Positions 10,301 through 44,812 of a DNA stretch of 52,361 bases are shown here, in pieces. The first letter of the stretch is position 1; every line of letters starts with the position of its first letter. Below the pieces are notes generated by a model. That model saw nothing but the letters and a program-made list of their open reading frames with translations. It ran no database searches and had not been told where the DNA came from. The position numbers were made by a program, and so were the translations under genes. Source of the DNA: a virus (lineage: Duplodnaviria; Caudoviricetes); the IMG/VR virus record IMGVR_UViG_3300046004_001366, positions 1-52,361 of that record; one strand, given 5' to 3'.

Positions 10301-13300
10301 GGTTCCAAGCGGAATCAGCGCCGTGCAGACCAACCGCCACTTCAGCGGATTGGACAAAGCCATCGCAGGCAGCGATGCCGAGAGCACCGAGCGAATCAAT
10401 GACATTGACCTTAACCCGCAGGCGCACGCTGACCGGCTCACAGAGCTTGGCGGAACTCCTTTTGAGGCTTCAGACATCACCCGCGCCACCGATCTTGTCG
10501 GGAGCGTTGCGGGAGCCGATAGCATCCGCTCCTCTGACAAGACGCAAGCGGATTACATGGAGAGATCACGCGCAGCCATTGATGCGGGCGACCTCGACAA
10601 GGCATCCAAGCTCATGCAGATGGCATTGCAGCAGTCGCGCACGCGCTCAAGTCTGGCCGATCAGGAACTTGGACAGGCAGCACTCGCCGCCCAGCAGATC
10701 GAGCAGGCACGCGCAGGAGGCAAAACGGCGGCAGCGCAACTACGCCAACAGGCGCAAGACACTCTGGCCGCAGATCCGAAAGCGAAGAAGCAGGCGGAGA
10801 CCTTGGAAGCTCATGCCGCTGCGCTCGAAACCGTGGCTGACCGTGCGGCAGCAATCGTCAAAATTGCCCGTGGTCGTGGCGATACCCTCACAACCGCTGA
10901 AAAGAATGCTCTTGGCGATGCCGTGGTGAACGAAGGCCAAGGCATGATCATCACTGACGCAGCCCGCGAAGAGTTGGCTCAGATCGCACCCGCCGCAGCC
11001 CGTTACGTCAAGCAGACGGAAACGATGCGCCGAGAACAGCTTTCCCGAGATCAGGCACAAGCAGCAGGAGCCGCCGCACCAGTGAGCACGCCCGCCCCGG
11101 CTCCAACCGCAGCGAATCCACCTCCTGCCGCTTCGCCTGCCCGTGGGACATCCACCAATGCGGGTGGTGCGCCATCGGTTACTGGCGCAGTGACCGCCCA
11201 GGGTGCGGCAACGGCTCCGCCTGCCGGTGCCGCGCCCGCTGGTGGCAAACTGCCAAAAGACCTCGCTGGAGCCAACCCTCGCTACAACCACGGCTCAAAA
11301 GCATTTGAGGTCGAGTTTGAAAACGACATCGACAAGGCCGCATACATTGCCGCCCAAGAGAATCCTAGCAAACGAGACGCTGATTATGTCGCTTGGGCTG
11401 TGCAAGCCAGCGGCATGACTGAGGCGGAAGTTCGCGATCACGGCAAAAAGGTACGCGCCAAGCTCAAAGAGATCGGAGCAAAATCGAACTCAGGGAAGCT
11501 GAAGCTCAAAGACCAGATGCCGCAGGCTACCAATAGCCAGCCTCCGGCTAGCCAGAGTCCGGCTAAACCTGCCGCTGCCCCCGCTCCTGCCGCACAACCC
11601 GCCGCGAAGCCTGCCGTGTGGAAGGGTGTGGGTATCAGTGGCAAAACTGCCGAGATTCCAGCCGACGAAGCCGCAACTCAGGACGAGGCCGAAAAGAAGC
11701 TCATCAAGAAGCTTGGCGAGCCTCTGCGTTCAGGTGGCGTGACATCGCCCACCAAAGCCAAGGGTGCTCCAGCCGCTAAACCAACCGCTTCCGCTCCTGC
11801 CGCCGCCCCCGCCCAAACTCCCGCAGACAAGAAGCGCGACCGCCTCCGCACAGTGGGCGAGCAGATCGACGCCCTTCTTCCTTCCTACCGCGACGCCTTC
11901 ACGGGCATCGTGGAAGAGTCCGGCAAAGGTCGGCGCGCATGGCTCGACCCCAAGACCGGCGCTCTCCACCTGAACCGGCAGCAGTTCGCCGCACAGTCCG
12001 CCGACCTGGACGATGCCGCCCTCGCCGCTGAGATCGAGACAATCATCCGCCATGAGTGGATTCATGCAGGAACCGTTGCCGTGCGCAATGATGCCCAAGC
12101 CGCTGCATTCTGGACAGAACTCGGCAAAAGCAAAGCGGGCAAGGACATCCAAACTGCCGCGCTCCGCGCCTACAATGCACCATATGAGGCCAGAGGTGTC
12201 GTTCCTCCCGCGCTCACTGATGCGCAGTCGGGATACGAAGCCTACCGGATGCTTTATGAACTCGCCCGCGACGGCAAACTCTCCGAGACGACCAACATCC
12301 CCGAATCACTCGCCGCTGACATCCGCTCCTTCCTGCAAGGGCTGGTCGATTGGATGCGCGCACGTCTCGCAAAGTTGCCGAAGAAACTCCGCAGCCAGAT
12401 CGAAGCAGACATTGCCGAGATCGAGGGCGCTCTCAAGAAACTCACTCCTGCCGCTCCTGCCGCGAAGGCAAGCAAGCCCGCGCCGGTCAATGCCGCAGAT
12501 ACGCAATCGCTGACGATTGTTCGACTCAAGGACGGTCGTCTTGTGCATGTCCATGAGAAGGAACTCGCCAAGAATAGCGCACGGCTACGCATGTTCACGC
12601 CCGAGGGTGAACCGATCAAGGGGGCCGCTGGCGTGCTGGAGCGCTCTGACATCGACCTTTCTCCGATTGAGGGAGCCGCAAATAACGCCCCCGATACCGT
12701 AGATGCTGCCGCACACGAAGCCGCGACAAGCCCGAACAACGACAAAGCGCACCCAACGCCTGATGAGATCAAGGCGGGCAACTACGAGAAGGGTCACTTC
12801 ACCCTTGGCGGCATGGACATCTCCATCGAGAACCCGGCTGGAAGTGAACGCAGCGGCATCGACAAGGACGGCAAGAAGTGGACCGTCCCGATGAAGTCCC
12901 ATTACGGCTACATCAAAGGCACCGAAGGCAAGGACGGCGACCATATCGACATCTTCATCGCCGAGGGCACGCCCAAGGATTACGACGGCCCCGTATTCGT
13001 CGTGAACCAGATGCGTCCCGTGACGCTCGTTCAGTCCGACATCCGCACCGGCAAGAAAACGGAAGTGCCAGCAGGCAAGGAGTTCGATGAACACAAGGCT
13101 GTCACCGGAACCGGCATCACCACTGAGGCGGAGGCAAAGGCCGCATATCTCGCCAACTACTCGGAAGGATGGGATGGCGCAGGAAGCATTGTGTCTTTCG
13201 CGAACCTCGCAGCGTTCAAATCGTGGGCGATGGGGAAGAAGCGCGTTGGCGCACTGACGCAGAGCGCGGCAGACAGTCACTCGCGAGCCGCAAGTGCAGA

Positions 13301-16300
13301 AGCAGGAGAGGCAAAGCAAGCACCCCTCCCAGCGGAGCAGATTGCCAAGCTTACCGATGCGAACAAGCAACTCAGCCGGTGGTCGAGCAATAATAACGCC
13401 TCGGCTCGCCACCAGATCGCCATCAACAAGTATGCGAGTGGCGCATGGACATTGCAGGACACGCCTTCACCTGAAAAGACACTTGCCGACATCGAGCAGG
13501 AAACCGCAAAGGCGCGCACGGCGTGGATTGTCACTCACATGGGTTATATCAACCAGAAGAATGACGCGCTAGTGCAGGCATTGGCCGCAGATCCAAAGGT
13601 TGTCGCTATCGCAACCAATGAGAACAATGACGCCATGAACATGCGCGTCTATCTGGCGGACCGCATCAAGGCCCAAATGGTCAAGGATTTGAAGGCTAAT
13701 CTCTCGGGAGATTCCCGCTTTGGATTGTACTACGACTTCACGCAGGAACGCATCAAAAGCGCTGATTGGCTTGACCACATAGCCGAATCTTTGAAAAAGG
13801 CCATCAAGCCAGCGGTATCAAATGATACCAGCGCGCCAACCTTTGAGCGCGGCGACCGCGTGACGTGGACGAGCGGCAAGGAATCACTCTCCGGCACTAT
13901 CCGCAGCGTCTCCAGCGATGGAACGGCATCCGTGGACACCGATCAAATCTCTTTCGCTGGTGGTGTGCCCATTGGCCGCATCGAGACGGTTCAAATGAGC
14001 CGACTGAGTAAGGAGGGGGAAGCAAAGCCCGCGCCGAAACCAAAAGCCGAGCCTGCTCCAGCCCCCGCGCCCAAGGATGCTGCCGACGAAGCTCTCGCGC
14101 AGGCGTTCGAGGGTCTTTTCGCCGCAGACCGGCCTATTGTCGATCCGGTCGTTCAGGCTCTCCGTGTGCTATCGCAAAATGACGAGTTCTTCCGTTTTAG
14201 CATCGTTCCACAAGATGTGAAGTCTCTCACGGAGATTATGCAGCGCGTCGTTCCTGGCTCGACCTATAAAGGCGATGCCACGCGGAACAATGAGCCAGAC
14301 CTGACCGAAGCTTACAGCCGCCAGATGTTCGCCACCAAGAGCGGAGCGCCTTTCTTTGTCTTCCAAGGCTACCACGATGGCGAGAAAACCACATGGATTG
14401 ATGTCAGTGGACTTAAAGAGGGCGGTGGCGGATCGGCCATCTATGCAGCCGTTGGCAACTACGCATACAACAATGGACTCAAATTCATTGGCGACCCTGC
14501 TGGACTCTCGGAGGCAGCGGTCATGCGCAGGACAAGTCACCTTCTTTCGCTGGCGCTTCGCTACGGCACTACAAAGCACATCGCGCCATCCAGGGAGCAA
14601 TTAGACGGCGTGCCAGAAAAAGGTATTGCGCCCGTCCGTTGGGATGGTGATGATACGGCCAAGATTCGATCATTGATCGAGTCCTTCCTCGGCACACTCC
14701 AGAAACGCTATCCTGAAATCCTCAATGCACGCTACGACTTCGACGCTGGTCAGTTCCTCGACTCACAAGGAATGCCTATTCGCTTTGATCGTGCTAAGAA
14801 GCCAGCTATCGAAGCGGGTGACGAGAATTCTGCCGAGATGGGAATTGAGGCGCGAAAAAGCGGAGCGCGAGCGGGTGAGGCAACATTACGTCGAGGTATT
14901 TTCCTCAAGTCCCTTGTATCAGGCGAGGGCCGCGAAAGATCCGAACTTCTGGAGCAACTGGAACTCTGGAATCGTGCATATGTAACCTCGGGAAATCTGG
15001 ACGGCCTTTTCGCCGCAGACCGCCCCGTTGCTGACATCGAGCAAGCCGACCTGCCGAAAGATCGCCGAGCGGCCATGCTCAATGCGGCTGGCGCATTGAT
15101 TGACGCTGAAGTAAAGCGCCCCGATGAACTCGCCGCACGACTTGAGAAACTCGCCCCCGGTGGGCAGTTGCGCAAATACTCGCGCTCGTTCTGGCGCTTG
15201 ATGAGCGGCTTCGACTCCACACTCGCGGAGAATCCCGACTGGAACGCCATCTATGATGCCATTGACAACCCCACTACCGAGAAGGATACTTTAACAGATG
15301 AAACTCAAACCGACATTCGTCCGCAAGATTCGGAGGGGCTACCTCCAGTCGGAGGGTCGGACGGCTCCAACGGACTCGGGATTCCCGAGCCAGATCAAGC
15401 AGGCGCTTCAGGTCGGAGCGCCCAAGGTGGCGTCAATTCTGGAGAAGGAGGGGATTCTCCTCCAGTGGGCGAGTCTGATGGCGGACCAAGTTTGGGAGAT
15501 GGTAAAAAGCCGTCCAAAAGGAATCGAACCCCGCGAGGCGGAAAAGGAAGCTCTGCTGATGCTAATCCCATCGACGGAGGAGCAGCAGGGGCAGTGGATG
15601 AGCCAACACGTAGCCCAGGCCGCGAGAACTACTTCCTAAGCGACCCTGAGTCGATTGTCGGAGGTGGTCAAAAGACGCGCTTCAACAAGAACAAGCTGGC
15701 TCTCGAAACTCTCGAACTCATCCAAGAAGAGGGCCGCGACCCTACTCCCGCAGAGTTGGACATCCTCGCCGCTTATACTGGCTGGGGTTCACTCGCGCAG
15801 GAACTCTTTCAAGGCGGCACCTTCGAGCGCCACGCTGGCCCGCAGGACTGGAAAGATGAATCCATGTGGCTTCGTGAACGTCTCGGCAAAGAGGCGTGGA
15901 TGTCGGCATTCGACTCCATCCTCAATGCTCACTATACCGACCCGCCGACCGTAAAAGCCATGTGGGACATGGTACGTCGCCTTGGCTTCAAAGGTGGCCG
16001 CGCTTTGGAGCCATCCGAGGGTATTGGCAACTTTTGGGGACTCATGCCGAGAGATATGATGGCGCTGAGTATGTTGACCGGCATCGAGATGGACTCCACC
16101 ACGGCAGCGATTGCTAAGATGCTGTATCCACAGGTGAATCACCGCTTGATGCCTTACCAGCAGTCTCAGACATCAGACAACTTCTATGATCTAGTGATTG
16201 GCAACTGGCCGTTCTCCGCCAACGACAAGCCAGCAGATCCACGCTTTGACCACCTCAAGGCGACGGTTCACAATTTCTTCTTTGTGAAAGCCCTTCATCA

Positions 16301-19300
16301 GACACGCCCAGGCGGTCTGGTGATTGGTATCACGTCATCCAAGACGATGGACGGCAAAAGCTCGCTGGTGCGCAAGTATCTGGCTGCGCGTGGTGAACTC
16401 GTCGCCGCCTTCCGTTTGCCAACAGGAGCCTTCGGCAAGTACGCAGGCACCAAGGTTGTCACTGACATCATCATCCTCAAGAAGCGTGAGACTGTCCTAG
16501 AGCGCGATGCTGGGGGCGAGGGATGGATTAACACCGTTCGCGACACGGCCGGGCGCGACTTTGACATCAATGAATACTTCGTTGCCAATCCGCAGAACAT
16601 TCTTGGCGAGTTAGATTTTGGGCACGGCACCACCTTTAACCGTGAGGGCATGATCGTGAATCGGTTGCCGAATTACGAGCAAGTGCTGCCGCGCCTGTTC
16701 GAGCGCCTGCCCGAGAATGTGATGACGCCGTGGAATCCCGTCGGGCATGAGCGAATCATCAACAACACCACCAAAGAGCGCAGGCAGGGAGCCGCAGTAT
16801 TCGCCAATGACGACCTTTATGTCGTGGACGGCGAAAGCCTTGTTCCTTTGCAGGACCGCGCCAAATGGCAGACCAAGACAGGCACGGCGAAGCGTCTTGC
16901 CGAGGGTGTGTCACTCATCGCTATGCGCGACGCCTTCAACGCCGTGCTCGACGCCAACCGGCAAGGGTCGGACGGCGAGACACAGCGGAAAGCATTGCAG
17001 GAGGCTTATGCGTCCTTTGTGAAGGATCACGGCCCGCTTCACAAGTCGTTCATGCTTGGACGCTTCCGCAAGGCGGGCGACCAAAACGCCATTGACCTTC
17101 TGGCGCTTGTCGAGGTCGATGAAACGACCGGCGCGGAAAAGCCGCGCTCACTCATGCTGCGCAACACGATGCGCAGGACGCAACTCGACGCGAAGGGCAG
17201 CATCGCCGACGCCTACGCCTTGCACCGCTCCGAGACGCTCGACTTCGATGCGGCCGCAGTGGCGAAGCTGGCGGGCGACGACACCAGCCCGAACGATGTG
17301 ATCGCCTTCCTCCAAGAGAAGGGACTCGTCTTCAAAATGCCAGATGGCCGGTGGATGCCGAATGAAATCTATCTCGCGGGCAATGTCCGCCGCAAACTGC
17401 GCGAAGCCATCGCCGCCAAAGAGGACGGAGTTGAAGGCATGGACGTTAACATCGACGCACTGACGTCCATCATTCCCGAGGACATCCCGTATCACAAGAT
17501 CACCGTGCAGATGGGGGCGGCGTGGATTCCGACCTCCGACTATGAGCAGTTCATCACTGAACTACTCGGAGGCAATGCCGCCGATGTGCAGGTCGTCAAA
17601 GGCATGAGCGGCTACAATGTCCGAATCGGTGGGCGCACAGCGGACAGCCGCGACGCCCGCCAGACGTGGAACGTAGTGACTGAAGCTGGCCAATCGCTCC
17701 TTCACCCGAGCCGCATGTTCCAAGCCGCGATGAACGGCACCGAGTTAATCATCAAGCGGGAAGTTGAAGACGAGAACGGCAACAAGCGCGAGGAGGTGGA
17801 TGAGCCCGCCACCAGACGCGCTATCGCTATGCGCGACAGCATTCGTGACCGTCTCCAGATGTGGGTTTGGACGGATGAATCCCGCATTGCACGACTGACC
17901 TTGGACTACAACGAGATGAAGAACTCCGTCATCAACCCAGAGTTTGACGGCTCTCATTTACGCCTGCCGGGATTATCACTCACCTTGAGCGACAGCGGCG
18001 ACCCATTCGAGTTTCGTCAGCATCAGGTGAATGCCGTATGGCGTGGCATCCTTCAGAAGCAGGGCGTTTACGCCCATGAGGTCGGCACCGGCAAGACCTT
18101 CACTATGGCAGGCTTAGCAATTGAGGGCCGAAGACTCGGCTCACATCGCAAGCCGATCATCTTCGCTCACAACGCAAACGCCGCGAGCGTCGCCGCTGAC
18201 TTCCGTCTCGCTTACCCTGGCGCGAAGATCCTGTTCGTGGACAATCTTTCACCTTCCACCAAGGAGTTGACGCTTCGGCAGATCGCCACCGATGAATGGG
18301 ACGCCATCATTGTCCCGCACTCACTGGTGGACCGTTTCGGATTGAGGCCGGAAACTATGCGAGCGCTGGCACAACCAGAACTCGACCGCATTGAGTCTGA
18401 GTTCTGGGCAGAACTGGACGAGCTTGGCGTTGATTCCTCATCAATTGATTTGGATGACATGCGCGGCATGGGGCAAATCCTGAACCGTCTCAAAGGTTCA
18501 GCAACGGCCAAGGAACTCGCCAACGCTCGCCGCCGCATCATGACCCGCATCGAAAAGCAGGTCGCGAAATTCTCCGGCCCCGGTGTCGTGTACTTCGAGG
18601 ACATGGGTATTGATGCTGTGATTGTCGATGAGGCTCACGTCTTCAAGAAGATCAGTCTAGCGACGCGCAAGGTGATCAAGGGACTGAACAAAACCGAGTC
18701 AGGTAAAGGATTCCAACTCGGCCTGCTCACCGACTGGTTGAAAACACAGACAGGCGGCAAGGGCGTTCATCTCTTCACCGGCACACCAGTTACGAACACA
18801 CTCAATGAGGTGTTCAACATGATGCGCTTCGCGATGGATAAGGAAATGGGCGAGTCGGGCATCGACAACTTTGACGACTGGTATAACGATTATGCTGACG
18901 GATTCTCCGACACCGAGCCGACATCTGGCGGCACCTATGAAGAAGTTACCCGACTGAGGGGATTCCTCAATGTGCCAGAGCTTGCCCGCTTGGCAGGCCA
19001 AGCCTTTGATGTGGTGCGCGCCGACGAAATGCCAGAGTTCAAGCCCCGCGCTTCGCATGAGGGCATCACGGAAAAACCCATTGGACGACCGCACAAGCAG
19101 GTGCGCCCCATCGTGATTGAGCCGACATCCGTGGCGAAGCGACTCAAGGCGTGGATTCGTCAACGGTTCTTCTATTATCGCGGACTCTCTGGGCGTGAGC
19201 GCATGTTCCTGAAAAAGATGGGCGGAGATCAGCCCGTCGTCATGGATGGCGACGGTAAAGCGGGGGCGCTTGACCCGCGTTTCGTAAGCCCAACAGCCGA

Positions 19301-22300
19301 AGATGACGCAAACTCAAAAGTGAATTATGCGGTGCGTAACATCGTCGAGCACTACAACGAGCACGACCTCGCTACGCAGATGGTATTTGTAGAGCGTGGA
19401 GCAGGCGATTACACCGAGGCTGATGTTGCCGTTCGTGATGCCGAAGGGAAACCGCAATACGACAACGACGGCAACCGCGTCGAGGTCAAGGAGCGCCGGT
19501 TACAGTTCAATCTCCTGCGCGACATGGTTGAAAAGCTGGTCGCTGAAGGCGTGAAGCCGGAAGAGATCGCCGTTTTTCAAAACCTCAAACTGCTACCTCT
19601 GCCAGACGGCAAGGATGATATTCTTTTGAGAGTTCACCGTGTTAATGGGCCGGAAGACAAGGAGGAAGCGGCCAAACTGATGCGTGAGGGTAAAATCCGC
19701 ATCGCTTTTGGTGGCACCGAGACAATGGGCACAGGCGTCAACGCACAGACATGGATGCGCGCCATGCACCATCTGGACGTTCCTTACATGCCTGGAGAAC
19801 TTGAGCAGCGCAATGGACGCGGCTGGAGACAGGGCAATAAGTGGAACACCGTCTTTGAATATCGCTACACCGTTGAGGGTAGCCATGACGCGAAGATGTG
19901 GAGCACTCTGCTAAACAAGGTCCGGTTCATTGAACGGTTCATTGGGATGCTGCAAGGCAAGAACCTAAGTCGCAACTTGGAAGGCGACGGCGCAGATGCC
20001 GCCGACGACGAGGACGGCATGAGCAACGCGGACTTTGAACAGATGTTCTCGACTGCCGCAGGAGACCCGCGCCTTATCTTGCGTCTCTCCCTCGGCAAGA
20101 AGGTTGATCGCATCCAGCAGGCCAAGAACATGCATCTTCAGTTCATGGAGCAGACTCGACGCAAGAACGCCGCTATCGAGAACAATGAGATTCCGAGGTT
20201 GGAAGCTGCTGTTCGGCAGTTTGAGAAAGGCGACGAGCTTTATCAGCAGGTTGCTGGAAAACCATTCTCGGCAACTCTTCGCGGGGAAACTTATACAGAG
20301 CGCAAAGACTTCGATGAGGCTATGACACGCCTTCCGCGCTACTTGGATCGCAAAGAAATCGGCACCTACGGACCTTTCCGCATTTACATCCAACCAACAA
20401 TGGGCGGCGGTTATTACGAGCTATCAGGGCCGGATAACTTCAACGCGTCATTCATGAATCCAAGCATGGCTTCGCTTGAGGGCACGCTACGCGCCATGAA
20501 GAAAAAGGCAGAAGGCAAGGCCGAAGAAATTGCAACCCTTCAGAAGTCGCTCGTTCGAGCCAAGGATGAGATGTCGCGCCCATTCCCCAAGGAGGAGGAA
20601 CTCACCAAGGCTCAAAACGCGCTGGCAGTCATCGAGTCGGAGATTCGCATCAGCCCCTACCCGGCCCCCGGCTGGCTTCGAGTCGGAGCGCCCCAAGGCT
20701 CTCTCATGTACTTGAAGGAGAAGGGCAAATTGAACGCCTACGACGTGGAAGCGCATCGGTGGGATGAAAACAACTATTGGGCAATGATCAGCCGAGACGG
20801 CGAATTGTTCCCCATCCCCTACAATGAAATGCTGGACGCCACCGGGGCGCGCATCTTTGAAGATCACGACCACACGGCACCGCCCGAGGCTCCCCCAACA
20901 ACGGCAGACGGCCAACAAGGCTCATTCCCCGGTGTTGAAGTCGGACTCGATGCCGAGTTCGGTTATCGAACATTGATCGACCGAGTGACCGGCGAGCGCA
21001 GCATCGAGCACAAGTTCTACACGCGATACGCGACCGTCGCCGATGGCTTCTATAATGCCGCCGCAGGTGGCGGGCGACTGCCTGCCAATGCCGCCGACTA
21101 CCTTCCCAAGACTGTTGAAGAGCTTCAACGCCTGCTCGTCAGATCGGGCGCGGCGAGCGGTCTGTTCAATGGCAAAGATTGGAAGTTCCTCGCTCCCGGC
21201 GAAAGCGATGAGCTTTATAAGCCCACCGAGACATGGCGAGTATTTGCCCCTGGCGGATGGATGGTTGGCGAAGGAGCGTCCCCTCGCGAGGCATTCTTTG
21301 AGGCACGCAACCATGACCAGAACGGAGACACCTTCATGGACGCCATTCGTTATGCCGTGATGCAGTTGCCGGAATCTGAGGATGACATCAATGAACTCCT
21401 CAGAATCGCGTCCCAGCTACCCAGCGGTATTGAGTTCCAGATGATCGACCCTGGATTAGACGACCCCTTCGAGAGCGAAAACGATGATACCAACGTCTTC
21501 CGCCTCACAAGCGACGGCTACGGCATCTTAGGTAGTGGCGAAAGACGCGCATTCGCCCTTCGCGATGCGCTGACGCATGAGCGATTCGGACGCACATTCA
21601 AGGAGGCTCTCGCCATCTACAACGCGCCCCCAGCGAAAAACCCGCTGGAGCGACTTGCCGACGAATCACGCCTACTCGATACCGACCGCCGTAGCCGTGG
21701 GCTTTTCCGCCGTCGTGCCAAATTGCGCAAACTCCTCGATGTGATTGAGCGCCGACGCGCCGAGGTGGAAAGCAACGAGGACAGATACCGCAACCGTGAC
21801 GCGCAAGACGAGACGCTCCAAAGCCTCATTGCCCGCGAGAAGGCGCTGACCGAGAAACTCGCCGAGGTGGAGTCGTTCATCATTTACCGTGAGCGCACCG
21901 AGGAGCCTTTGCCTCTCGCTGCTGCGGACCGGCCAATGATGGACGCGGAGGAGTTCGCTGATGCGCTTGACGCCTTGAACTCCGACATGCCGAGCGAATC
22001 TGACCTGGACGACCTTCGCCAGCGCGCCGGTCTCGATTGGGGCCGCGAATACACAGACAGCGAGCTTGCCGGACTGTCTGGCGGTATGCGCGCAGGGATG
22101 CGGACCGCATACGATGACAAGCTTGACCGGCAGACGCACGAAGCTTGGAACGAAAAGGCTCACAAGCTCATTGATGAAGATCCTACCCGGGTGCTTGCCG
22201 ACTTGGTGAGCACGGCGACAGATCGCGGCTCCATCATCAACCCTGTTCAGGTCAAGGCATCGCAGATTCTTCTTCCGCAACTCATGCGCGAGGCAATCGC

Positions 22301-25196
22301 CAACCGTGATGCCAAATCCTTCCGCATGGCCGAAACTCTGACGTGGGCATACGACGCGGCAGGGACGGAAACAGCGCGAGGACTCGCCGCCCGCTGGCAA
22401 CCGCACCTTTCCCCCGAGGAGAGGCACCGCGAAGTCTTGGCGAAGATCATCTTCACGCCGGGCGCAAAGGACCGCGAGGACATCAAGCGCGCCCCGACAG
22501 ACCGCGCCCAGGCTGAGCGCATTGCTTCGCTGGAGAAAGAAATCGAGCGTGTGCGCTCTGAGGCGACCGAACGCGAGAAGGACATGCTACGCCAAGTGGC
22601 AGGCATGACGGAATCTCTACGCGAGGCACGCCGCAAGGATGCCGTTGCCCTGCGCGCCGAAGCCAAGAAGGAACTCGATGCCCTGCGCGCCGAGTTGAAG
22701 CGCGTGCAGGCACAGAAGACGCAGCTTCAGATGCTCCACGACATCAACACGGAGCGACTCGCCAAGATCGAGAAAGCCTTTGAGGAAATGGGCATCACGT
22801 ACCATGACATTTTCGTTTCCCGTGAGATTTCGATTGGTCTCAAGACCTCCAGCGTGGTGAAGAATGCCATGCAGCCATTCACGCCGAAGGAGCGCCAAGC
22901 TCTCCAGATGATGATGGATGGACGCAGCGACCGGCAGATTGCCAATAAAACGGGCATCAGTCGCAACAGCATGGCGGGAATTGAAGCGCGTTTTGACAAA
23001 GTGCTCGATGCCAAGCTCGAAGCGCTGGTCCGTCGCGGGTTTGACATCTCGAAGGCTGATGGCCTCGATGTGGACAAGCTCATCGACAAGGCCGGTAACA
23101 TCCTCGCCGCTGCCGACCGCCCGGTTGCGACGCTGACCGCCGAGGAGGTTAAAAAGCGCGTGGGTGAACTGCGTGCCATCATCAAGCCATCTCCTGACGC
23201 TCGAAACTCCGGCGCTCTCCGCCGTCTGAAGGGTGAAGAGTCCAAGGAGGCGCCGTACGGCTTCGACATCAGCCGTCCAGAGCACGCAGCCATGCTCATG
23301 CGCGCCATTCACCGCATGGACAGCAACCCAATGGACATGGTGTATGAATACTGGATCAACGGGCTTCTCTCCGGCCCTGCGACTCACACGGCCAACATTG
23401 CTGGCAACCTTGGCAGCGCTGGTCTGGAATACCTCATTCAGCGACCGATTGAGGCAATCACCAATGCCGTTCTCTTCCAAAACGTCGCAGGCGCAAGCCT
23501 TGGCGAATACCAGAGCATGACCAAGTATGCCGCCCGCGCAGCAAGCACCGCTTGGCGCTTCGCTCGCATTGCCTGGAACACCGAGGTTTCCCTCTTTGAT
23601 TCACAATGGCTCAACAAGCCGCTCGTCGTTTCCGGCAACAGCGGAGACAAGGGGCAGTTGGAGCGGTTTGCTATCCCTGGCACTACCGGCCGCGTCGTTC
23701 GGACTCCGACACGCTTCCTGCAATTCGCGGACGAATGGGCCAAGCATTTCTTCGGCATGATCGAGGCGGCAGCACAAGCGCACCGGTTGGTAAAGGCGGA
23801 CGGTCTAAAGCCCGGCAGCGCCGAGTTTGACGACCGGGTGGAACAACTCGTCGGCATTCCCGGCTCTCCTGCTTGGCTCGCTGCCGTCGATAAGGCGCAC
23901 CGGTTGACCTTCACGAACGATCTTCCTGCGCCATTGGCGAAAGCTCAAGAGATGCTTCACTCCCGCGCTAAAACGCCTTGGGGAGCCGTCGCTAAAACGC
24001 TTCTGCGCTTCGTGTTCCCATTCATTCGCACGCCATACAACATCTTTGCTACTGGTCTGCGTAAGACGCCTCTCGGATCTGCGCGTATGATTGGCAAAGG
24101 ATTGGCCGCATGGCACGGGAAACAGCCATTCTTCGACAGCTACCCACAGGCGGCACTCGCGACAGACATCGCCGAACAGCTTCTCGGCTGGTCTGCGGCA
24201 ATGATACTCTTCGCCATCGGCGAGGGAGACCCTGACGACGAAAAGAAGACGATCCTCATCACCGGCTCTCGCTCACGCAGCGACGACAGAGGCGAGGACC
24301 AACTTCTTGACCGCCTGCGCGGTGGCGAGACAACCATCCTCATCAAAGGCAAACCTGTTTTCAATTATGGACGCTACGAGCCTTTTGCGACGATCATCTC
24401 GACGCTGGTCGATGCTTCTCGCGACATGAAGAAGATCAAAGGCGGGCAGAAACCAAGCAAGGCAATAGGTGAAGCTGTGCGAGGTGTGCTCGATCAAGCG
24501 CGAACCAAGACGTTCCTGCAAGGTCTTGATGGCCTCATGCAGCTTATTGAAGGCCGCACTTCCACCACGATGCCTGAGCAACTGCGCAAGTTTATCGTGA
24601 CCGGCATTGTGCCGAACCTTGTCCGCCAGCCAATCCGTAACGCTGATGAGTTTGCCAGAGACACACGCAATGCGCCTTGGTATTACCATGCCATCCCTCT
24701 TGGTGGTCTCGCTGAACCGCTGTATGACCTTTACGGCCGACCAGTGGAGAAGATGGGCAATCCAGTCACGCGGGCGTTTATCAATACCCCTGTGCAGCCA
24801 AGCACTCCGACCAATCCGGCTGACCGTGCATTGCGCGTCTGGAACGACCGGAATCCCCTGCGTGGAGATGGCGACGGTATGGGATACTTCCCGACGAACG
24901 TCGATAAGAGCATGATGCGCTTCAAGGATGCCTCCAAAAAATGGCAGGACATGACACCACGCGAAGCCGCAGAACTCCGCCGCAAAGGTGGACAAATCAT
25001 GGATGCGGAAGCGCGGGCGGCAATCACCAACCCGACAAACCCGACTCAGGACGACATCGACAGGCTCAAGAAGGCGCGCAACAAGGCGTTCTCGAAGGCT
25101 AAAAGTGAGATGTTCTCGGGCGGTGTTCGTCCTGTGCTGCCAGCACGGCGACCTCCATCACTGAGCGAAATCTTCGGGCAAGTGCTGCGCAGGTAG
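7362..25196 (+). CDS. Giant (5944 aa) polyvalent/DarB-like virion protein: HExxH domain, inorganic pyrophosphatase-like domain, GNAT-like module, N6-adenine-type DNA methyltransferase, SNF2 helicase, HTH
   Basis: HEWIH (12051-12065); KAGNYEKGH...ISIENPAGSERSG...HYGYIKGTEGKDGDHIDIF (~12770-12960); MTase motifs LEPSEGIGNF (~16005) and GNWPF (~16200); SNF2 motifs HEVGTGKT (18075-18098), DEAH (18627-18638), TGTP, GTGVNAQ, QRNGRGWRQG. Confidence 0.9.
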   Translation: MALPFGIPNVSSRPTGTPAPSLPFGPPPSKSDPMSATNMAAQGVNPLYYGGSEALAADHNRDAAWNLERENHDRAVAQADKMAKDRQSEFDAAEAERVKARDEQNERDVAQASLAEATAPKTLTDSQRRDAEETAKKKSDEAKRAAIGGMQTSLEPIASQTQGGFLGFGAEPTDAAKEATAKIQALQNQEVSDADLAEYRKAHPETFAELDRVQATITQDDAARAARKPAEVALARAKAIKAGLSPEEADAQLASQSPQSADPKIADMQRVAASGLMEREQARIGELTQRIQDRHNKLAEIDAESQNIEQRLIQGGTAAQIGPLTQRRHELIAQRKAEQVAIANESEAAAGAQRAIEIRRQRIQEAEAMQGKGVDAPSATGYLPAKDPAKATEEVRAAKKADAEKAIGVLSDRSKQRADAARAASEQVEAQVRTGKITPEVGAQLREKAIEKSMQDFDAQFDEDKSTLADSLDDYAAGTIDADTLNSIFHAAGAAKSGVESFRDNADNLKKKDETLEALQKVALGDDNGNSNPSLNGEEMRLLSEIAGHESDANNPLNWKAKATSVTTDEYGRSHDVFSEADYEKLRSQSKQAALDGKKQLTELRAANRAKMVAELEKRGITDPGEQAQLIVEADLKAASKARPGIAANVAARGGIAATLAQKLPFAGGVVEASRILPYAATAIALEAGQTPPVEDLEALAAFAKFAGTDSTFWSKTADVVSALPGFVIELNTTGGIATAVKKVGLEGMKKALTGLASVQGRKQLAAAIARASAENIGKLGSKKVLAMRLGSGLAQEAVRLAPASAGRIASKFTQDTALSGVNLSPVEGKLAASMNMENRRGSGGRLLDAVVDSYIENVSERSGKYVMGALGMIGKKVLPQAVSGFFAKAGNAAKDGMLRAAFVKSLMAKNPGIEPLKLQRYLKGANIGGTIEEMMEERVGGAARDAYAAITTGRDDNKVLGYITKPTMEDLLVELVSFSVPSGISAVQTNRHFSGLDKAIAGSDAESTERINDIDLNPQAHADRLTELGGTPFEASDITRATDLVGSVAGADSIRSSDKTQADYMERSRAAIDAGDLDKASKLMQMALQQSRTRSSLADQELGQAALAAQQIEQARAGGKTAAAQLRQQAQDTLAADPKAKKQAETLEAHAAALETVADRAAAIVKIARGRGDTLTTAEKNALGDAVVNEGQGMIITDAAREELAQIAPAAARYVKQTETMRREQLSRDQAQAAGAAAPVSTPAPAPTAANPPPAASPARGTSTNAGGAPSVTGAVTAQGAATAPPAGAAPAGGKLPKDLAGANPRYNHGSKAFEVEFENDIDKAAYIAAQENPSKRDADYVAWAVQASGMTEAEVRDHGKKVRAKLKEIGAKSNSGKLKLKDQMPQATNSQPPASQSPAKPAAAPAPAAQPAAKPAVWKGVGISGKTAEIPADEAATQDEAEKKLIKKLGEPLRSGGVTSPTKAKGAPAAKPTASAPAAAPAQTPADKKRDRLRTVGEQIDALLPSYRDAFTGIVEESGKGRRAWLDPKTGALHLNRQQFAAQSADLDDAALAAEIETIIRHEWIHAGTVAVRNDAQAAAFWTELGKSKAGKDIQTAALRAYNAPYEARGVVPPALTDAQSGYEAYRMLYELARDGKLSETTNIPESLAADIRSFLQGLVDWMRARLAKLPKKLRSQIEADIAEIEGALKKLTPAAPAAKASKPAPVNAADTQSLTIVRLKDGRLVHVHEKELAKNSARLRMFTPEGEPIKGAAGVLERSDIDLSPIEGAANNAPDTVDAAAHEAATSPNNDKAHPTPDEIKAGNYEKGHFTLGGMDISIENPAGSERSGIDKDGKKWTVPMKSHYGYIKGTEGKDGDHIDIFIAEGTPKDYDGPVFVVNQMRPVTLVQSDIRTGKKTEVPAGKEFDEHKAVTGTGITTEAEAKAAYLANYSEGWDGAGSIVSFANLAAFKSWAMGKKRVGALTQSAADSHSRAASAEAGEAKQAPLPAEQIAKLTDANKQLSRWSSNNNASARHQIAINKYASGAWTLQDTPSPEKTLADIEQETAKARTAWIVTHMGYINQKNDALVQALAADPKVVAIATNENNDAMNMRVYLADRIKAQMVKDLKANLSGDSRFGLYYDFTQERIKSADWLDHIAESLKKAIKPAVSNDTSAPTFERGDRVTWTSGKESLSGTIRSVSSDGTASVDTDQISFAGGVPIGRIETVQMSRLSKEGEAKPAPKPKAEPAPAPAPKDAADEALAQAFEGLFAADRPIVDPVVQALRVLSQNDEFFRFSIVPQDVKSLTEIMQRVVPGSTYKGDATRNNEPDLTEAYSRQMFATKSGAPFFVFQGYHDGEKTTWIDVSGLKEGGGGSAIYAAVGNYAYNNGLKFIGDPAGLSEAAVMRRTSHLLSLALRYGTTKHIAPSREQLDGVPEKGIAPVRWDGDDTAKIRSLIESFLGTLQKRYPEILNARYDFDAGQFLDSQGMPIRFDRAKKPAIEAGDENSAEMGIEARKSGARAGEATLRRGIFLKSLVSGEGRERSELLEQLELWNRAYVTSGNLDGLFAADRPVADIEQADLPKDRRAAMLNAAGALIDAEVKRPDELAARLEKLAPGGQLRKYSRSFWRLMSGFDSTLAENPDWNAIYDAIDNPTTEKDTLTDETQTDIRPQDSEGLPPVGGSDGSNGLGIPEPDQAGASGRSAQGGVNSGEGGDSPPVGESDGGPSLGDGKKPSKRNRTPRGGKGSSADANPIDGGAAGAVDEPTRSPGRENYFLSDPESIVGGGQKTRFNKNKLALETLELIQEEGRDPTPAELDILAAYTGWGSLAQELFQGGTFERHAGPQDWKDESMWLRERLGKEAWMSAFDSILNAHYTDPPTVKAMWDMVRRLGFKGGRALEPSEGIGNFWGLMPRDMMALSMLTGIEMDSTTAAIAKMLYPQVNHRLMPYQQSQTSDNFYDLVIGNWPFSANDKPADPRFDHLKATVHNFFFVKALHQTRPGGLVIGITSSKTMDGKSSLVRKYLAARGELVAAFRLPTGAFGKYAGTKVVTDIIILKKRETVLERDAGGEGWINTVRDTAGRDFDINEYFVANPQNILGELDFGHGTTFNREGMIVNRLPNYEQVLPRLFERLPENVMTPWNPVGHERIINNTTKERRQGAAVFANDDLYVVDGESLVPLQDRAKWQTKTGTAKRLAEGVSLIAMRDAFNAVLDANRQGSDGETQRKALQEAYASFVKDHGPLHKSFMLGRFRKAGDQNAIDLLALVEVDETTGAEKPRSLMLRNTMRRTQLDAKGSIADAYALHRSETLDFDAAAVAKLAGDDTSPNDVIAFLQEKGLVFKMPDGRWMPNEIYLAGNVRRKLREAIAAKEDGVEGMDVNIDALTSIIPEDIPYHKITVQMGAAWIPTSDYEQFITELLGGNAADVQVVKGMSGYNVRIGGRTADSRDARQTWNVVTEAGQSLLHPSRMFQAAMNGTELIIKREVEDENGNKREEVDEPATRRAIAMRDSIRDRLQMWVWTDESRIARLTLDYNEMKNSVINPEFDGSHLRLPGLSLTLSDSGDPFEFRQHQVNAVWRGILQKQGVYAHEVGTGKTFTMAGLAIEGRRLGSHRKPIIFAHNANAASVAADFRLAYPGAKILFVDNLSPSTKELTLRQIATDEWDAIIVPHSLVDRFGLRPETMRALAQPELDRIESEFWAELDELGVDSSSIDLDDMRGMGQILNRLKGSATAKELANARRRIMTRIEKQVAKFSGPGVVYFEDMGIDAVIVDEAHVFKKISLATRKVIKGLNKTESGKGFQLGLLTDWLKTQTGGKGVHLFTGTPVTNTLNEVFNMMRFAMDKEMGESGIDNFDDWYNDYADGFSDTEPTSGGTYEEVTRLRGFLNVPELARLAGQAFDVVRADEMPEFKPRASHEGITEKPIGRPHKQVRPIVIEPTSVAKRLKAWIRQRFFYYRGLSGRERMFLKKMGGDQPVVMDGDGKAGALDPRFVSPTAEDDANSKVNYAVRNIVEHYNEHDLATQMVFVERGAGDYTEADVAVRDAEGKPQYDNDGNRVEVKERRLQFNLLRDMVEKLVAEGVKPEEIAVFQNLKLLPLPDGKDDILLRVHRVNGPEDKEEAAKLMREGKIRIAFGGTETMGTGVNAQTWMRAMHHLDVPYMPGELEQRNGRGWRQGNKWNTVFEYRYTVEGSHDAKMWSTLLNKVRFIERFIGMLQGKNLSRNLEGDGADAADDEDGMSNADFEQMFSTAAGDPRLILRLSLGKKVDRIQQAKNMHLQFMEQTRRKNAAIENNEIPRLEAAVRQFEKGDELYQQVAGKPFSATLRGETYTERKDFDEAMTRLPRYLDRKEIGTYGPFRIYIQPTMGGGYYELSGPDNFNASFMNPSMASLEGTLRAMKKKAEGKAEEIATLQKSLVRAKDEMSRPFPKEEELTKAQNALAVIESEIRISPYPAPGWLRVGAPQGSLMYLKEKGKLNAYDVEAHRWDENNYWAMISRDGELFPIPYNEMLDATGARIFEDHDHTAPPEAPPTTADGQQGSFPGVEVGLDAEFGYRTLIDRVTGERSIEHKFYTRYATVADGFYNAAAGGGRLPANAADYLPKTVEELQRLLVRSGAASGLFNGKDWKFLAPGESDELYKPTETWRVFAPGGWMVGEGASPREAFFEARNHDQNGDTFMDAIRYAVMQLPESEDDINELLRIASQLPSGIEFQMIDPGLDDPFESENDDTNVFRLTSDGYGILGSGERRAFALRDALTHERFGRTFKEALAIYNAPPAKNPLERLADESRLLDTDRRSRGLFRRRAKLRKLLDVIERRRAEVESNEDRYRNRDAQDETLQSLIAREKALTEKLAEVESFIIYRERTEEPLPLAAADRPMMDAEEFADALDALNSDMPSESDLDDLRQRAGLDWGREYTDSELAGLSGGMRAGMRTAYDDKLDRQTHEAWNEKAHKLIDEDPTRVLADLVSTATDRGSIINPVQVKASQILLPQLMREAIANRDAKSFRMAETLTWAYDAAGTETARGLAARWQPHLSPEERHREVLAKIIFTPGAKDREDIKRAPTDRAQAERIASLEKEIERVRSEATEREKDMLRQVAGMTESLREARRKDAVALRAEAKKELDALRAELKRVQAQKTQLQMLHDINTERLAKIEKAFEEMGITYHDIFVSREISIGLKTSSVVKNAMQPFTPKERQALQMMMDGRSDRQIANKTGISRNSMAGIEARFDKVLDAKLEALVRRGFDISKADGLDVDKLIDKAGNILAAADRPVATLTAEEVKKRVGELRAIIKPSPDARNSGALRRLKGEESKEAPYGFDISRPEHAAMLMRAIHRMDSNPMDMVYEYWINGLLSGPATHTANIAGNLGSAGLEYLIQRPIEAITNAVLFQNVAGASLGEYQSMTKYAARAASTAWRFARIAWNTEVSLFDSQWLNKPLVVSGNSGDKGQLERFAIPGTTGRVVRTPTRFLQFADEWAKHFFGMIEAAAQAHRLVKADGLKPGSAEFDDRVEQLVGIPGSPAWLAAVDKAHRLTFTNDLPAPLAKAQEMLHSRAKTPWGAVAKTLLRFVFPFIRTPYNIFATGLRKTPLGSARMIGKGLAAWHGKQPFFDSYPQAALATDIAEQLLGWSAAMILFAIGEGDPDDEKKTILITGSRSRSDDRGEDQLLDRLRGGETTILIKGKPVFNYGRYEPFATIISTLVDASRDMKKIKGGQKPSKAIGEAVRGVLDQARTKTFLQGLDGLMQLIEGRTSTTMPEQLRKFIVTGIVPNLVRQPIRNADEFARDTRNAPWYYHAIPLGGLAEPLYDLYGRPVEKMGNPVTRAFINTPVQPSTPTNPADRALRVWNDRNPLRGDGDGMGYFPTNVDKSMMRFKDASKKWQDMTPREAAELRRKGGQIMDAEARAAITNPTNPTQDDIDRLKKARNKAFSKAKSEMFSGGVRPVLPARRPPSLSEIFGQVLRR

Positions 25197-41909: not shown

Positions 41910-41928
41910 GTGTATTATTTGTGTGTCA

Positions 41929-42011: not shown

Positions 42012-42013
42012 CC

Positions 42014-42295: not shown

Positions 42296-42577
42296 ATGTC
42301 AGCCTCCAAAACGAAAACGATACGCCTCTCCCATGATCTCGCTGATGCAGGAAGCCTACGGGCCAAGGAGTTGGGTTACGAGTCTGTCACTGCACTTATT
42401 GAAGGTCTCCTGCGCTACGATTGCCTTTGTCGCTCAAGCCACGGAGTAACGACACAATGGGCGAAGCTCACAGGTGCGCAGCAAGACGAAATAGACGGCA
42501 AGATGCTGGCGCGAGTGCTTGAGCGAAAGGGCATGAAAGCTGCGGAAGCGGCTTCCGTGGACTGGCGGAAGCTGTAA
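42296..42577 (+). CDS. RHH-like DNA-binding protein
   Basis: KTKTIRLSHDLAD...RAKELGYESVTALIEGLLR. Confidence 0.6.
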   Translation: MSASKTKTIRLSHDLADAGSLRAKELGYESVTALIEGLLRYDCLCRSSHGVTTQWAKLTGAQQDEIDGKMLARVLERKGMKAAEAASVDWRKL

Positions 42578-42585
42578 ACAGGCTA

Positions 42586-43176
42586 TTACGGCACGATGAT
42601 GACTTGTTGAGTCGTGCCGTCCTTGTTTTGGATCATGTAGTGACCTGCGCCCTGGTGAATGATGGTGGCACCTCCTGCTGCTCCTCCGTGTGTGGTGAAC
42701 ACGCCTCCTGAGCCAGTGATGACAGTCGCCCCTGTGGATGGTTTGGGTGTAGCCCAAAATATCGGGTTCACGCCCTGTGCCGCCATGTTCTCGGGACTCA
42801 TGGGGTTGCTGTAAGGGTTGTATGAAGCTCTTGGAGTATTGGCGGCGGCAATCTGCGCGTTGAATGCTGCCGTGTCCCTAGCCCGGTCTTGGGCTTCCCT
42901 TGCTATTTGGGCCTTCTGCTCCTGAAACTCTCTCTCTATTTTAGCCATGCCTGCCTCCAACTTGCGTTGTCTCTCTTCTTCCTCTGCAACAAGCCGCTTG
43001 TGAGTAATCTCAGCTTCAGCCTTCACCTTCGCGTGATAAATCACGTTCGAGCGTTCCTGCGCCTCTTCCTTTTCAGCCTGGATTTGGGCAAAACGCTTTT
43101 GACGTTGAACCTTTATGGACTGGTCTAAAGCGTAAAACAGGGATGCGACAACAGCGATAAACAAGAAAGCCCTCAT
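42586..43176 (-). CDS. Membrane-anchored coiled-coil protein, candidate superinfection-exclusion factor
   Basis: N-terminal TM (MRAFLFIAVVASLFYAL) and coiled coil, then a motif shared with the giant protein's N-terminus; located in the lysogeny region. Start codon uncertain. Confidence 0.6.
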   Translation of the reverse strand: MRAFLFIAVVASLFYALDQSIKVQRQKRFAQIQAEKEEAQERSNVIYHAKVKAEAEITHKRLVAEEEERQRKLEAGMAKIEREFQEQKAQIAREAQDRARDTAAFNAQIAAANTPRASYNPYSNPMSPENMAAQGVNPIFWATPKPSTGATVITGSGGVFTTHGGAAGGATIIHQGAGHYMIQNKDGTTQQVIIVP

Positions 43177-43278
43177 GTTGAAACATCGCGTTTCCTCCAT
43201 GTCCCGCAAGATTTAATAAAGGTGAACGACGAGTGAACGACTATTGACATTCACGCCATATCCATTCCAATTAACCCC

Positions 43279-43530
43279 ATGGCAACCAAACAGACCGCAA
43301 ACAAGGGGCAGACCAGCATCAACATTCATCCTGGCATTCTCAAGCAGGGCCGGGCAATCGCGAAAGATGATCATCGCTCATTCTCCAGCTTCGTCGAAGC
43401 GTGCATTGCAAAGGAGATCCGCCGCTATGTCGCCATGAAGGCGCTCGATGCCGACTTAGCAAAGGAAGAGGAAGCTCAACGTCGCCGCGCTTTAGCCAAG
43501 GCACCGCGCAAGCTTTCAACTTCCCGGTGA
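43279..43530 (+). CDS. RHH-like DNA-binding protein
   Basis: QTSINIHPGILKQGRAIAKDDHRSFSSFVEACIAKEI; TTGACA at 43244. Confidence 0.6.
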   Translation: MATKQTANKGQTSINIHPGILKQGRAIAKDDHRSFSSFVEACIAKEIRRYVAMKALDADLAKEEEAQRRRALAKAPRKLSTSR

Positions 43531-44597
43531 GTGTATCGGCGCTGTATCTGAACGTCATCGTGATCGGTGACGAGCCGCGCCAACTCGCCGGACACGCCCG
43601 CAGAGGTTAGCCGTGTCGTCATGGAGTGCCGGTAGCTGTGGAAACTCTTCAGATGCACCACTCGAACGCCGCGCATTTTTGGCTGCGGGTCAATGCCACC
43701 TTTCCGCATGAACTGGATAAACCGCTCGCTGGCTTTCCCGTTCCGATTGTCAGCATGGAATATCGTCTTGAAGTTGCCCAAACGCGTGACCCGTAGCGCC
43801 AGCCAGTTCGGCAATGGTAAAACCACGGTCCTGCCGCCCTGCCTGCCTTTTTTCCGTGGCTGCAATGTCACCAGATCGCCAGATATGCTGGCGGCGGTCA
43901 CGTCGAGCAAGTCTTGCAGCCGGTGTCCTGTGTGCCAGCCAAGCGAACAAAGCGCCGTCCAGTCCTTCCGCTTCACCTTGCGGCACTGTCGCAGGATAAC
44001 GGCGTGCTCCGCCCGCGTTAGGTGAAGCTTCTCGACGGCATCAGGGGTTGCCCGCACAACTCCTGCACATGGGTTGCCCGCTCGATGTCCGTGGTTCATC
44101 GCCCGCCCGAACATCATCGACGCGAAATTGAGGTGATCCCCTGCCGTCGTGGCGCTGAACTTCTTCCGCGTAGCGTCGTAATAGTCCTGCATGTCCTGAA
44201 TCGTTATGTTCTGCACCGGCTCACTTGCGCGCTTGCCTGCCCATTTCGCTAGGCTCGTCCATTGAGCCGAGTACTTGCGGCGGGTGCCTGCGCTCACGTT
44301 CGCTGCATCCAGGAAGGCTTTGGCGCACTCGGCAAGCGATGGCACAGGGACAAGCTCAGAAATGCCCGCCAGACGCAAGATGTCGTTCACCATCTCCAAG
44401 GCTCGCTCTTTGGTCATGGTGCCAGCCTTCGCGGCCCCGCTTGCCTGCTCCAGTGTCGCGGCGATTCCTGCCGCCTGAGCTTTGTCAGTGACTCCAGTAC
44501 CTTTCTGCCTCCACACGTATTTCCCTTTCGCGGCATCCCAAACCCGGAATGCAGCGACCCAAGTATCAGAGCCGGATGGACGAAAGACAGTAGCCAC
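43476..44597 (-). CDS. int: Phage tyrosine integrase
   Basis: TGHRLQD (R), SFHSYRH (HxxR), TDH...RRY; N-terminal arm-binding-like region; probable GTG start at 44597. Confidence 0.88.
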   Translation of the reverse strand: MATVFRPSGSDTWVAAFRVWDAAKGKYVWRQKGTGVTDKAQAAGIAATLEQASGAAKAGTMTKERALEMVNDILRLAGISELVPVPSLAECAKAFLDAANVSAGTRRKYSAQWTSLAKWAGKRASEPVQNITIQDMQDYYDATRKKFSATTAGDHLNFASMMFGRAMNHGHRAGNPCAGVVRATPDAVEKLHLTRAEHAVILRQCRKVKRKDWTALCSLGWHTGHRLQDLLDVTAASISGDLVTLQPRKKGRQGGRTVVLPLPNWLALRVTRLGNFKTIFHADNRNGKASERFIQFMRKGGIDPQPKMRGVRVVHLKSFHSYRHSMTTRLTSAGVSGELARLVTDHDDVQIQRRYTHREVESLRGALAKARRR

Positions 44598-44812
44598 AAA
44601 GAATCCCACAAAATGCAAATATATGTTCACTTTGCATTCACTTTGTCGCAAAAACCGCAGAAACACGCCGAAACCTTGAGGAATAAGGCGAAAACGGATA
44701 TTCATGGGCACAAAAAAGCACCCGGCTAAGGGTGCTTTCGTGCCTTTGGGAACATCCCCTTAGCTCCACTTCACCAAGGGAGGATGGGTAAACCCACAAA
44801 GAAACCCATAAA
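44594..44812. other. attP: Putative attP: tRNA-Ala-like 3' core flanked by arm-type repeats
   Basis: Core ATCCCCTTAGCTCCAC (44754-44769); CCACAAAGAATCCCACAAA (44594-44612) and CCACAAAGAAACCCATAAA (44794-44812). Confidence 0.65.
44712..44738 (-). terminator. Intrinsic terminator
   Basis: Minus strand GCACCC-TTAGCC-GGGTGC-TTTTTT. Confidence 0.75.

Follow-up and report, generated by a model that had tools for sequence, protein, structure and literature searches.

The linear IMG/VR virus record IMGVR_UViG_3300046004_001366 (52,361 bases, completeness estimate 81%; analysed over its whole length and called the window below) encodes two proteins, of 196 and 5,944 residues, that have the nonamer NMAAQGVNP in common within a shared stretch of 19 residues. 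The shorter one (the small protein) is encoded on the minus strand near an integrase gene and is predicted to be membrane-anchored; the longer one (the giant) is, by its sequence, a DarB-like polyvalent protein. We are highly confident, from the sequence comparisons that follow, that the resemblance is real and has been maintained by selection. A tentative interpretation, to which we give a probability of about 0.3, is that the small protein excludes phage by mimicry of the giant's peptide. The fuller form of this proposal, which we hold to be somewhat less probable, is that temperate phages of the clade shield their lysogens with a membrane-anchored, periplasmic copy of the docking peptide of their own injected giant, which would saturate an envelope partner.

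The peptide shared by the giant and the small protein

The initial annotation of this DNA had reported NMAAQGVNP in both proteins. Translation confirmed this, and BLASTP of the small protein against the giant returned one significant segment (15/31 identities, E 1e-5, composition-adjusted). Residues 31-49 of the giant (7452-7508, plus strand) read SDPMSATNMAAQGVNPLYY, and 42751-42810 translated on the minus strand gives SNPMSPENMAAQGVNPIFWA; the plus-strand reading of the latter is unrelated. The coordinates of the second copy had been given correctly, with the refinements that the strand is minus and that the range holds 20 codons, the 19-residue motif itself, SNPMSPENMAAQGVNPIFW, occupying 42754-42810. 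The likeness extends into the flanks, where S-[ND]-P-M-S precedes the core and two aromatics follow it.

Thirteen of the 19 motif residues are identical. Two of them are Met; among the other 11, eight are encoded by different codons and three by the same. Across the 27-nt core 22 nucleotides are identical, all five differences are synonymous, and the synonymous codon pairs named in the initial annotation were recovered by codon comparison. The nucleotide likeness is no greater than the peptide dictates and therefore gives no indication of a recent DNA copy, which upholds the earlier claim of a likeness at the level of the peptide rather than a recent duplication.

Among the 43 open reading frame (ORF) products of the window (15,760 residues), no 9-mer other than NMAAQGVNP and no 8-mers other than the two it contains are common to two proteins; the next-longest shared words are two 7-mers. 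When only residues 113-196 of the small protein were shuffled, none of 400 Smith–Waterman alignments reached the observed score (Gumbel P 1.9e-4). Shuffling of the whole small protein matched the score in 2 of 400 cases, because the composition of its charged coil resembles that of the giant's coils. These whole-protein shuffles speak for a chance likeness of two Ala/Gly/Pro-rich disordered segments, as does the very large number of windows scanned: such a scan would occasionally yield a comparable 9-mer by chance, and evidence independent of the pair, namely conservation in homologues and a profile test, was therefore needed. The octamer MAAQGVNP also occurs in two long, Gly/Pro-rich phage proteins from unrelated IMG/VR contigs (L003 5135-5157, minus strand, 722 residues; L004 7503-7525, minus strand, 554 residues), about the number that chance predicts on a rough estimate; both lack the NPxS flank and were set aside. 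Chance is opposed by the uniqueness of the shared word in the window proteome, the BLASTP value, the agreement of the flanks, and a profile made without the window's own giant that still ranks the small protein first (see below), and we regard it as very improbable.

Conservation in homologues could be followed in a small family. Searches of 5.8 billion protein clusters gave five matches to the small protein, one identical (P0004) and four homologous (P0005 to P0008). P0005 (65% identical) and P0006 (44%) retain the hydrophobic N-terminus and NPMA[AV]QGVNPRFWATP[KP]P; the stalk and the remaining linker have diverged, and in P0006 the C-terminal domain has also been replaced. The columns invariant in P0004, P0005 and P0006 are M131, A132, Q134-P138, F140-P144 and P146, which amounts to 13 within residues 131-146 as against 6 within 96-130. 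On this alignment, in the two homologues with the motif, no other part of the linker is as well conserved as the motif itself, at an overall identity of 44-66%. P0007 and P0008 have only the C-terminal domain in common with the small protein, are without the motif, and have different N-terminal two-thirds.

A family this tiny and visibly mosaic is what would be seen if a piece of the giant's N-terminus had been recombined into a mosaic small gene and had persisted there, as a remnant of module shuffling, with no function related to the giant. Yet synonymous sites are near saturation and the peptide is retained, where decay would be expected without selection, and the motif stands out as the best-conserved part of an otherwise diverged linker; we consider such a remnant improbable. 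Contigs of four lake-water runs compared over 34001-52361 were almost identical to the window, with a single difference in the small gene (42698 A>T in X5, outside the motif), and are therefore uninformative on selection.

A conserved module at the N-terminus of related giants

A HMMER search with the first 1,200 residues of the giant against 1.84 billion representatives found 100 proteins at E ≤0.001. Twelve N-termini were aligned, comprising 11 matches that reached or neared the start of the query, plus P0009 and the giant of metagenome contig L007, minus P0026, which was left out since no similarity was apparent by eye. In these related giants a three-part module precedes an acidic, Gln-rich coil. 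Its first part, M[AP]LP, stands at the extreme N-terminus in 11 of the 12 sequences, with MALPF in seven; the second is LPFxPP; the third is [ND]P-x-S-x3-hydrophobic-x-A-x-G-x(2-5)-aromatic, its hydrophobic-x-A-x-G core being present in 11/12 and the [ND]P ahead of the core in 7/12. Examples of the third element are RNPGSFQKLQAAGVRHF and LNPTSATNFVAAGGRADW, and the L007 giant has the variant SNPYSATRLAAMGATEF. Within this alignment, NMAAQGVNP is the window's local version of a clade-wide element. Residues 1-50 of the window's giant were judged from the sequence to be disordered, given their Pro/Gly-rich composition.

A profile of the motif columns was then built from 10 giants, without that of the window (P0003) and without P0010. 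In a set of 140 sequences (184,833 residues) the small protein ranked first, with an E value of 5.2e-4 as against 0.025 for the next best. It was likewise the best match outside the training set (E 0.01) in a six-frame test on 1,586 segments of the window and of contigs L007 and L008. By the measure of this profile, what the small protein shares with the giants is the third element of their module, and the variant it has is that of its own sub-clade.

Among the giants examined, only those of the closer clade (at least 38% identity over the first 1,200 residues) had the module, which was absent from the 14 distant IMG/VR loci examined (L006 and L008 excluded), from Pseudomonas phage vB_PaeM_USP_18 (USP_18) and from Mwe-JY07. 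The giant of USP_18 (L023 15561-15680), the closest in GenBank with 39% identity in the core, begins with DQKPWESF twice within 27 residues, and no further copy occurs in the 63-kb genome; each clade of giants may own a distinct N-terminal linear signal.

The initial annotation had called the giant a virion protein, and its matches agree with a virion-borne kind. Pfam assigned LPD37 (E 2e-69) and InPase (E 2.7e-40), both above curated cut-offs, and the DarB-like antirestriction family phrog_10089 was matched in two halves (E 6.7e-124 and 5.3e-284) over about 1,770 residues. The giant also carries a methyltransferase (phrog_11801 DNA methyltransferase, E 1e-89) and an SNF2-type helicase, and its InPase region additionally matches PHROGs named virion structural protein and minor head protein. 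A tblastn search with the core found 97 GenBank phage records at 28-39% identity, 70 of which cover at least 80% of the core. Some of these relatives were deposited as lytic transglycosylase/helicase/methylase, names that imply periplasmic action upon entry.

An experimental precedent is the DarB-like gp69 of JC1, a Bcep22-like podovirus: according to the description of that phage (PMC9144972), this 4,515-residue protein was detected in purified virions by mass spectrometry with 51 unique peptides, the protein encoded upstream of it is also virion-associated, and the plus-strand giant gene is followed by two small minus-strand genes. The window has the same layout, its giant closing a plus-strand block with tail-fibre-like and endolysin-like genes, after which come two small minus-strand genes. 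Iyer et al. (2017, PMC5512222) have also predicted packaging for InPase-bearing polyvalent proteins. By analogy, that the giant is a virion protein is a reasonable inference. The giant resembles P1 DarB, Bcep22-like gp75 and JC1 gp69 in its phrog_10089 core, its LPD37/InPase domains and its JC1-like local layout. It differs from its DarB-like relatives in that its first 1,000 residues had no match in 50,697 GenBank phage records and in that the MALPF/NPxSAT module is limited to the closer clade. The domain at residues 640-1000 was modelled by AlphaFold2 with a mean predicted local distance difference test (pLDDT) score of 63; a Foldseek search of the PDB had no match at E ≤0.001. An ESM Atlas query with the first 1,200 residues indicated no host. 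The relative P0009 is listed with PF28553-PF28555.

Several further features of the giant and its surroundings were recorded. A gene for a 429-residue protein lies directly upstream (6043-7332, plus strand) and has a counterpart beside the related giant of L007 (5409-6578; 33% identity, E 1e-15); its product may assist the giant as a partner or chaperone. Within the giant, the linear motif GLFAADRP(I/V) occurs twice and LAAADRP twice (four observed, 0.03 expected from shuffles), at residues 2252, 2549, 4852 and 5248 (14115-14138, 15006-15029, 21915-21935 and 23103-23123). These sites sit at apparent domain boundaries and could be linkers or sites of proteolytic processing. Matches to the same pattern were found in P0009 and P0016 (three each, GLF[AS]APRP and similar) and in P0013 (one), and none in P0011, P0012, P0014, P0023 or P0026. 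An HExxH sequence (HEWIH) is located near residue 1564.

Architecture, topology and possible role of the small protein

The initial annotation had described the small protein as a membrane segment joined to a coiled coil, and its architecture was borne out by sequence and by an AlphaFold2 model (m039bf60eed59, mean pLDDT 72). A single helix spans residues 2-112 with pLDDT 84-94 per ten-residue block, and the hydrophobic segment of 15 residues falls within it. The linker at 115-169, motif included, has pLDDT below 50, and strands were modelled at 171-176, 179-183 and 189-194. Pfam, PHROGs and NCBIfam assigned no family to this protein, and PADLOC gave noise only (E 0.05). There was no match among GenBank phages, nothing usable in the ESM Atlas, only weak coiled-coil matches at noise level in a sequence search of the PDB, and nothing at E ≤0.001 in a Foldseek search of the model against BFVD.

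The start at ATG 43176 is backed by homologues, P0006 likewise beginning with MRAFLF; other in-frame starts are ATG 43200 and TTG 43209, the TTG form having 207 residues. The GGAGG near the start lies 17 nt ahead of ATG 43176, and 7 nt ahead of the out-of-frame ATG 43186 of a 36-codon frame that overlaps the start of the small gene (region 43184-43200). With a start at ATG 43200, the N-terminus would be longer by MEETRCFN, and the charge balance that is relevant to topology would be different.

With one positive charge ahead of the hydrophobic segment and four behind it, the positive-inside rule would put the K/R-rich stalk in the cytoplasm. With the stalk charge contrary, the proposed topology rests on the analogy with P0007 and P0008. 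By our reading of their sequences, the N-termini of these two proteins resemble cleavable signal peptides (MK, a hydrophobic run, then TQA|Q or LPA|Q) and two Cys are present. Because P0007 and P0008 place the C-terminal domain behind such N-termini, this domain probably works outside the cytoplasm. On the same analogy an N-in/C-out orientation of the small protein is likely, and the motif would probably be displayed outside the cytoplasm.

The stalk charge favours another possibility, in which the giants' module is a cytoplasmic signal for capsid targeting or processing (by binding to portal or scaffold, or as a cut site of a maturation protease) and the small protein, with its stalk in the cytoplasm, carries the same signal, perhaps so as to titrate or regulate packaging or to hamper the assembly of incoming relatives. 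The strong conservation of the giants' extreme N-terminus is as expected for a targeting signal, and the GLFAADRP/LAAADRP repeat of the giant, which has a hydrophobic-A-A core in common with the motif, may mark cleavage sites; autoproteolysis of polyvalent proteins prior to packaging is discussed by Iyer et al. (PMC5512222). However, a membrane-anchored protein would be an odd carrier of a capsid-targeting signal, P0007 and P0008 have the same C-terminal domain behind signal-peptide-like N-termini, and no protease or scaffold gene was identified among the genes of the window. We rate a capsid signal as doubtful.

The small gene had been placed in a lysogeny region, and genes for an integrase and a ribbon-helix-helix (Arc-like) regulator do surround it (Table 1). 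It forms a single unit, 300 nt from the integrase gene. The interval between regulator and integrase is the usual location of lysogenic-conversion genes.

In the mechanism that we propose under exclusion by mimicry, the disordered N-terminus of the giant would be a docking signal that, on leaving the virion, binds to a partner in the envelope or to some component of the entry conduit. Lysogens would produce the small protein from a separate transcription unit located among the integrase and regulator genes, and this protein, anchored by its hydrophobic N-terminus, would hold the same peptide in the periplasm on a stalk of about 95 residues. There it would compete for the partner of the giant, and this competition would block the entry of DNA and protein from phages with the same module, amounting to superinfection exclusion by peptide mimicry. 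A literature search found no report of exclusion via mimicry of an ejected protein's peptide, which is weak evidence for its true absence.

Two known exclusion proteins act on ejected proteins or on entry and thus provide precedent for such a mechanism; neither is reported to resemble its target in sequence. SieA of P22 is an inner-membrane exclusion protein whose escape mutations map to the ejection proteins gp16 and gp20 (PMC10883804). The small protein would be like SieA in being a prophage-encoded membrane protein proposed to disturb proteins that exit the virion and build the entry path. It is unlike SieA in that no sequence similarity was detected by Pfam, PHROGs, PADLOC or NCBIfam and in that a linear motif common to both would connect it with its target, SieA not being reported in that account to copy a peptide of its target; the exclusion role of the small protein is a candidate one. 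HK97 gp15 is a small single-pass inner-membrane protein from an independent prophage transcription unit that blocks genome entry, depending on tail features of the incoming phage (PMC3594210). The protein considered here is similarly small, would likewise pass the membrane once and would be made from a separate transcription unit. Unlike gp15, which is a relative of the host's YebO proteins and is encoded within the tail operon, it is encoded beside an integrase, is without a family, and has the stalk, a disordered linker and a beta domain. The giant, then, belongs by sequence to a known DarB-like kind and the small protein to no family, and the proposed exclusion mechanism would be a new variant.

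The same partner might also be engaged for another purpose, with the small protein serving the phage's own cycle: at lysis or egress it could be a timer or a tether in the membrane, or it could help by conditioning the envelope. The anchor, the long helical periplasmic segment and the C-terminal domain resemble those of i-spanins of the Rz type; the motif is kept within the small-protein family; and neither a promoter-like site in a sigma-70 scan nor any run on record as RNA, none of which contains the stretch, points to expression of the small gene in lysogens. In contrast to i-spanin genes, the small gene lies 37 kb from the only endolysin-like gene of the window, outside any lysis cassette. 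It has no embedded or adjacent lipoprotein ORF, no lipobox-bearing frame among the ORFs overlapping 42000-44000 and no PHROG lysis family, and its position as a single unit between regulators and integrase is that of lysogenic-conversion genes. A role in the phage's own cycle is unlikely in our estimate, though less so than the capsid signal considered above.

Several results weigh against exclusion by mimicry. In addition to the charge of the stalk and the whole-protein shuffles described above, no known exclusion or defence family in Pfam, PHROGs, PADLOC or NCBIfam matches the small protein. The motif of the giant drifts: in P0010, the relative nearest to it (76% identity in the first 100 residues), the sequence is NMAQQGVNA, with two of the nine core residues changed, and the more distant P0009 has LAAAGSTEF. 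P0005 (E 0.98) and P0006 (E 5.3), which are without the SxxNM half of the motif, gave no significant match to the giants' profile. A sigma-70 consensus scan around the small gene found no promoter or terminator; the result weighs little, because the genome hardly uses Shine-Dalgarno sites either. Finally, neither a second copy of the motif nor a homologue of the small protein was present in contigs L007 (19 kb read) and L008 (11 kb read), in portions that lie away from the expected (likely lysogeny) region of the small gene.

Those two contigs came from a search for relatives with both genes, none of which was recovered. Scans of viral contigs with the small-protein alignment and the giant's first 400 residues as queries, and of metagenome contigs with the small-protein alignment, found no relative; the giant's domain at 640-1000 as query recovered L007 and L008 from metagenomes and 16 IMG/VR loci. 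Directly after VN[PA], the window's pair has Ile or Leu, and P0005, P0006 and the giant P0010 have Arg. In these unpaired sequences the pattern is at most a hint of co-variation.

To our knowledge, little is known of how giant polyvalent proteins exit the capsid and cross the envelope; for the signal that sets this passage in motion, the N-terminal module, conserved and disordered, offers a concrete candidate. Were the small protein a decoy, an entry signal would for the first time have been identified in a polyvalent virion protein, the pair would offer a genetic handle comprising peptide, competitor and phenotype, and molecular mimicry of a phage linear motif would join the known routes of prophage exclusion. 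Should exclusion prove wrong, the presence of one motif in two proteins of the same phage, one of the virion and one of the membrane, would still point to a partner that both have in common and that could be fished for with the 19-residue peptide.

Gene neighbourhood and other features of the window

The features discussed are collected in Table 1. The product of the gene divergent from the small gene may be a further ribbon-helix-helix regulator, judged by eye. Replication and recombination genes elsewhere in the window include those for Erf-like, exonuclease, DnaC-like, primosomal and helicase proteins; portal-like, tail-fibre-like and endolysin-like genes, a weak terminase match and two tyrosine-recombinase genes were also found. 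The second of the recombinase-like genes (32525-33541, minus strand; phrog_216 and phrog_1, E ~1e-31) lies amid the replication genes.

Table 1. Coordinates of the small-protein gene, the giant gene and neighbouring features in the window.
Feature	Position	Strand	Basis or remark
Small-protein gene, 196 aa from ATG (P0004 identical)	42586..43176	-	ORF list, sequence
Hydrophobic N-terminal segment, residues 3-17, AFLFIAVVASLFYAL	43126..43170	-	Predicted signal anchor or transmembrane helix; nearly identical in P0006
Charged helical stalk, residues 18-112, rich in E, K, R, Q, A	42841..43125	-	AlphaFold2
Shared motif in small protein, SNPMSPENMAAQGVNPIFW, residues 123-141	42754..42810	-	Inside disordered linker 115-169
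Gly/Thr-rich C-terminal beta domain, about residues 151-196	42589..42726	-	74-87% identity with P0007, P0008
Giant gene, 5,944 aa (P0003)	7362..25196	+	LPD37, InPase, phrog_10089
Pro/Gly-rich N-terminal module of giant, residues 1-49: MALPF, LPFGPPP, motif SDPMSATNMAAQGVNPLYY	7362..7508	+	Alignment of 12 N-termini
Tyrosine integrase	43476..44711	-	phrog_1 integrase E 1.9e-26; Pfam Phage_integrase match weak
Arc/ribbon-helix-helix-like regulator, convergent with small gene	42014-42220	+	phrog_6506 Arc-like repressor E 3.2e-4; weak NCBIfam ribbon-helix-helix antitoxin-type matches
Second gene convergent with small gene	42296-42577	+	Family searches: no match
Gene divergent from small gene, 102-nt intergenic	43279..43530	+	ORF; weak YlcI/YnfO_N match E 0.0034
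Endolysin-like gene, only one in window	4550-5281		37 kb from small gene

Shine-Dalgarno-like sequences (GGAG, GAGG, AGGA or AAGG) were found within 25 nt upstream of 10 of 42 ORFs only. Just 5′ of several starts, for example those of the giant, the portal-like gene, 35831-36298 and 38329-39120, there is instead a C/T-rich ACCTCCT or CCTCC; this is the complement of a Shine-Dalgarno site and may be an unusual translation-initiation signal of the host.

Contigs from at least six lake-water metagenome runs contain sequence nearly identical to the window; three of these runs are possibly the source of the window itself. In the lake-water contigs, three bins (34614-35226, 37679-38291 and 46261-46873) had summed depths 3 to 40 times those of adjacent bins and showed divergent variants as well as loose ends, which suggests short modules common to many phages or elements of the same waters.

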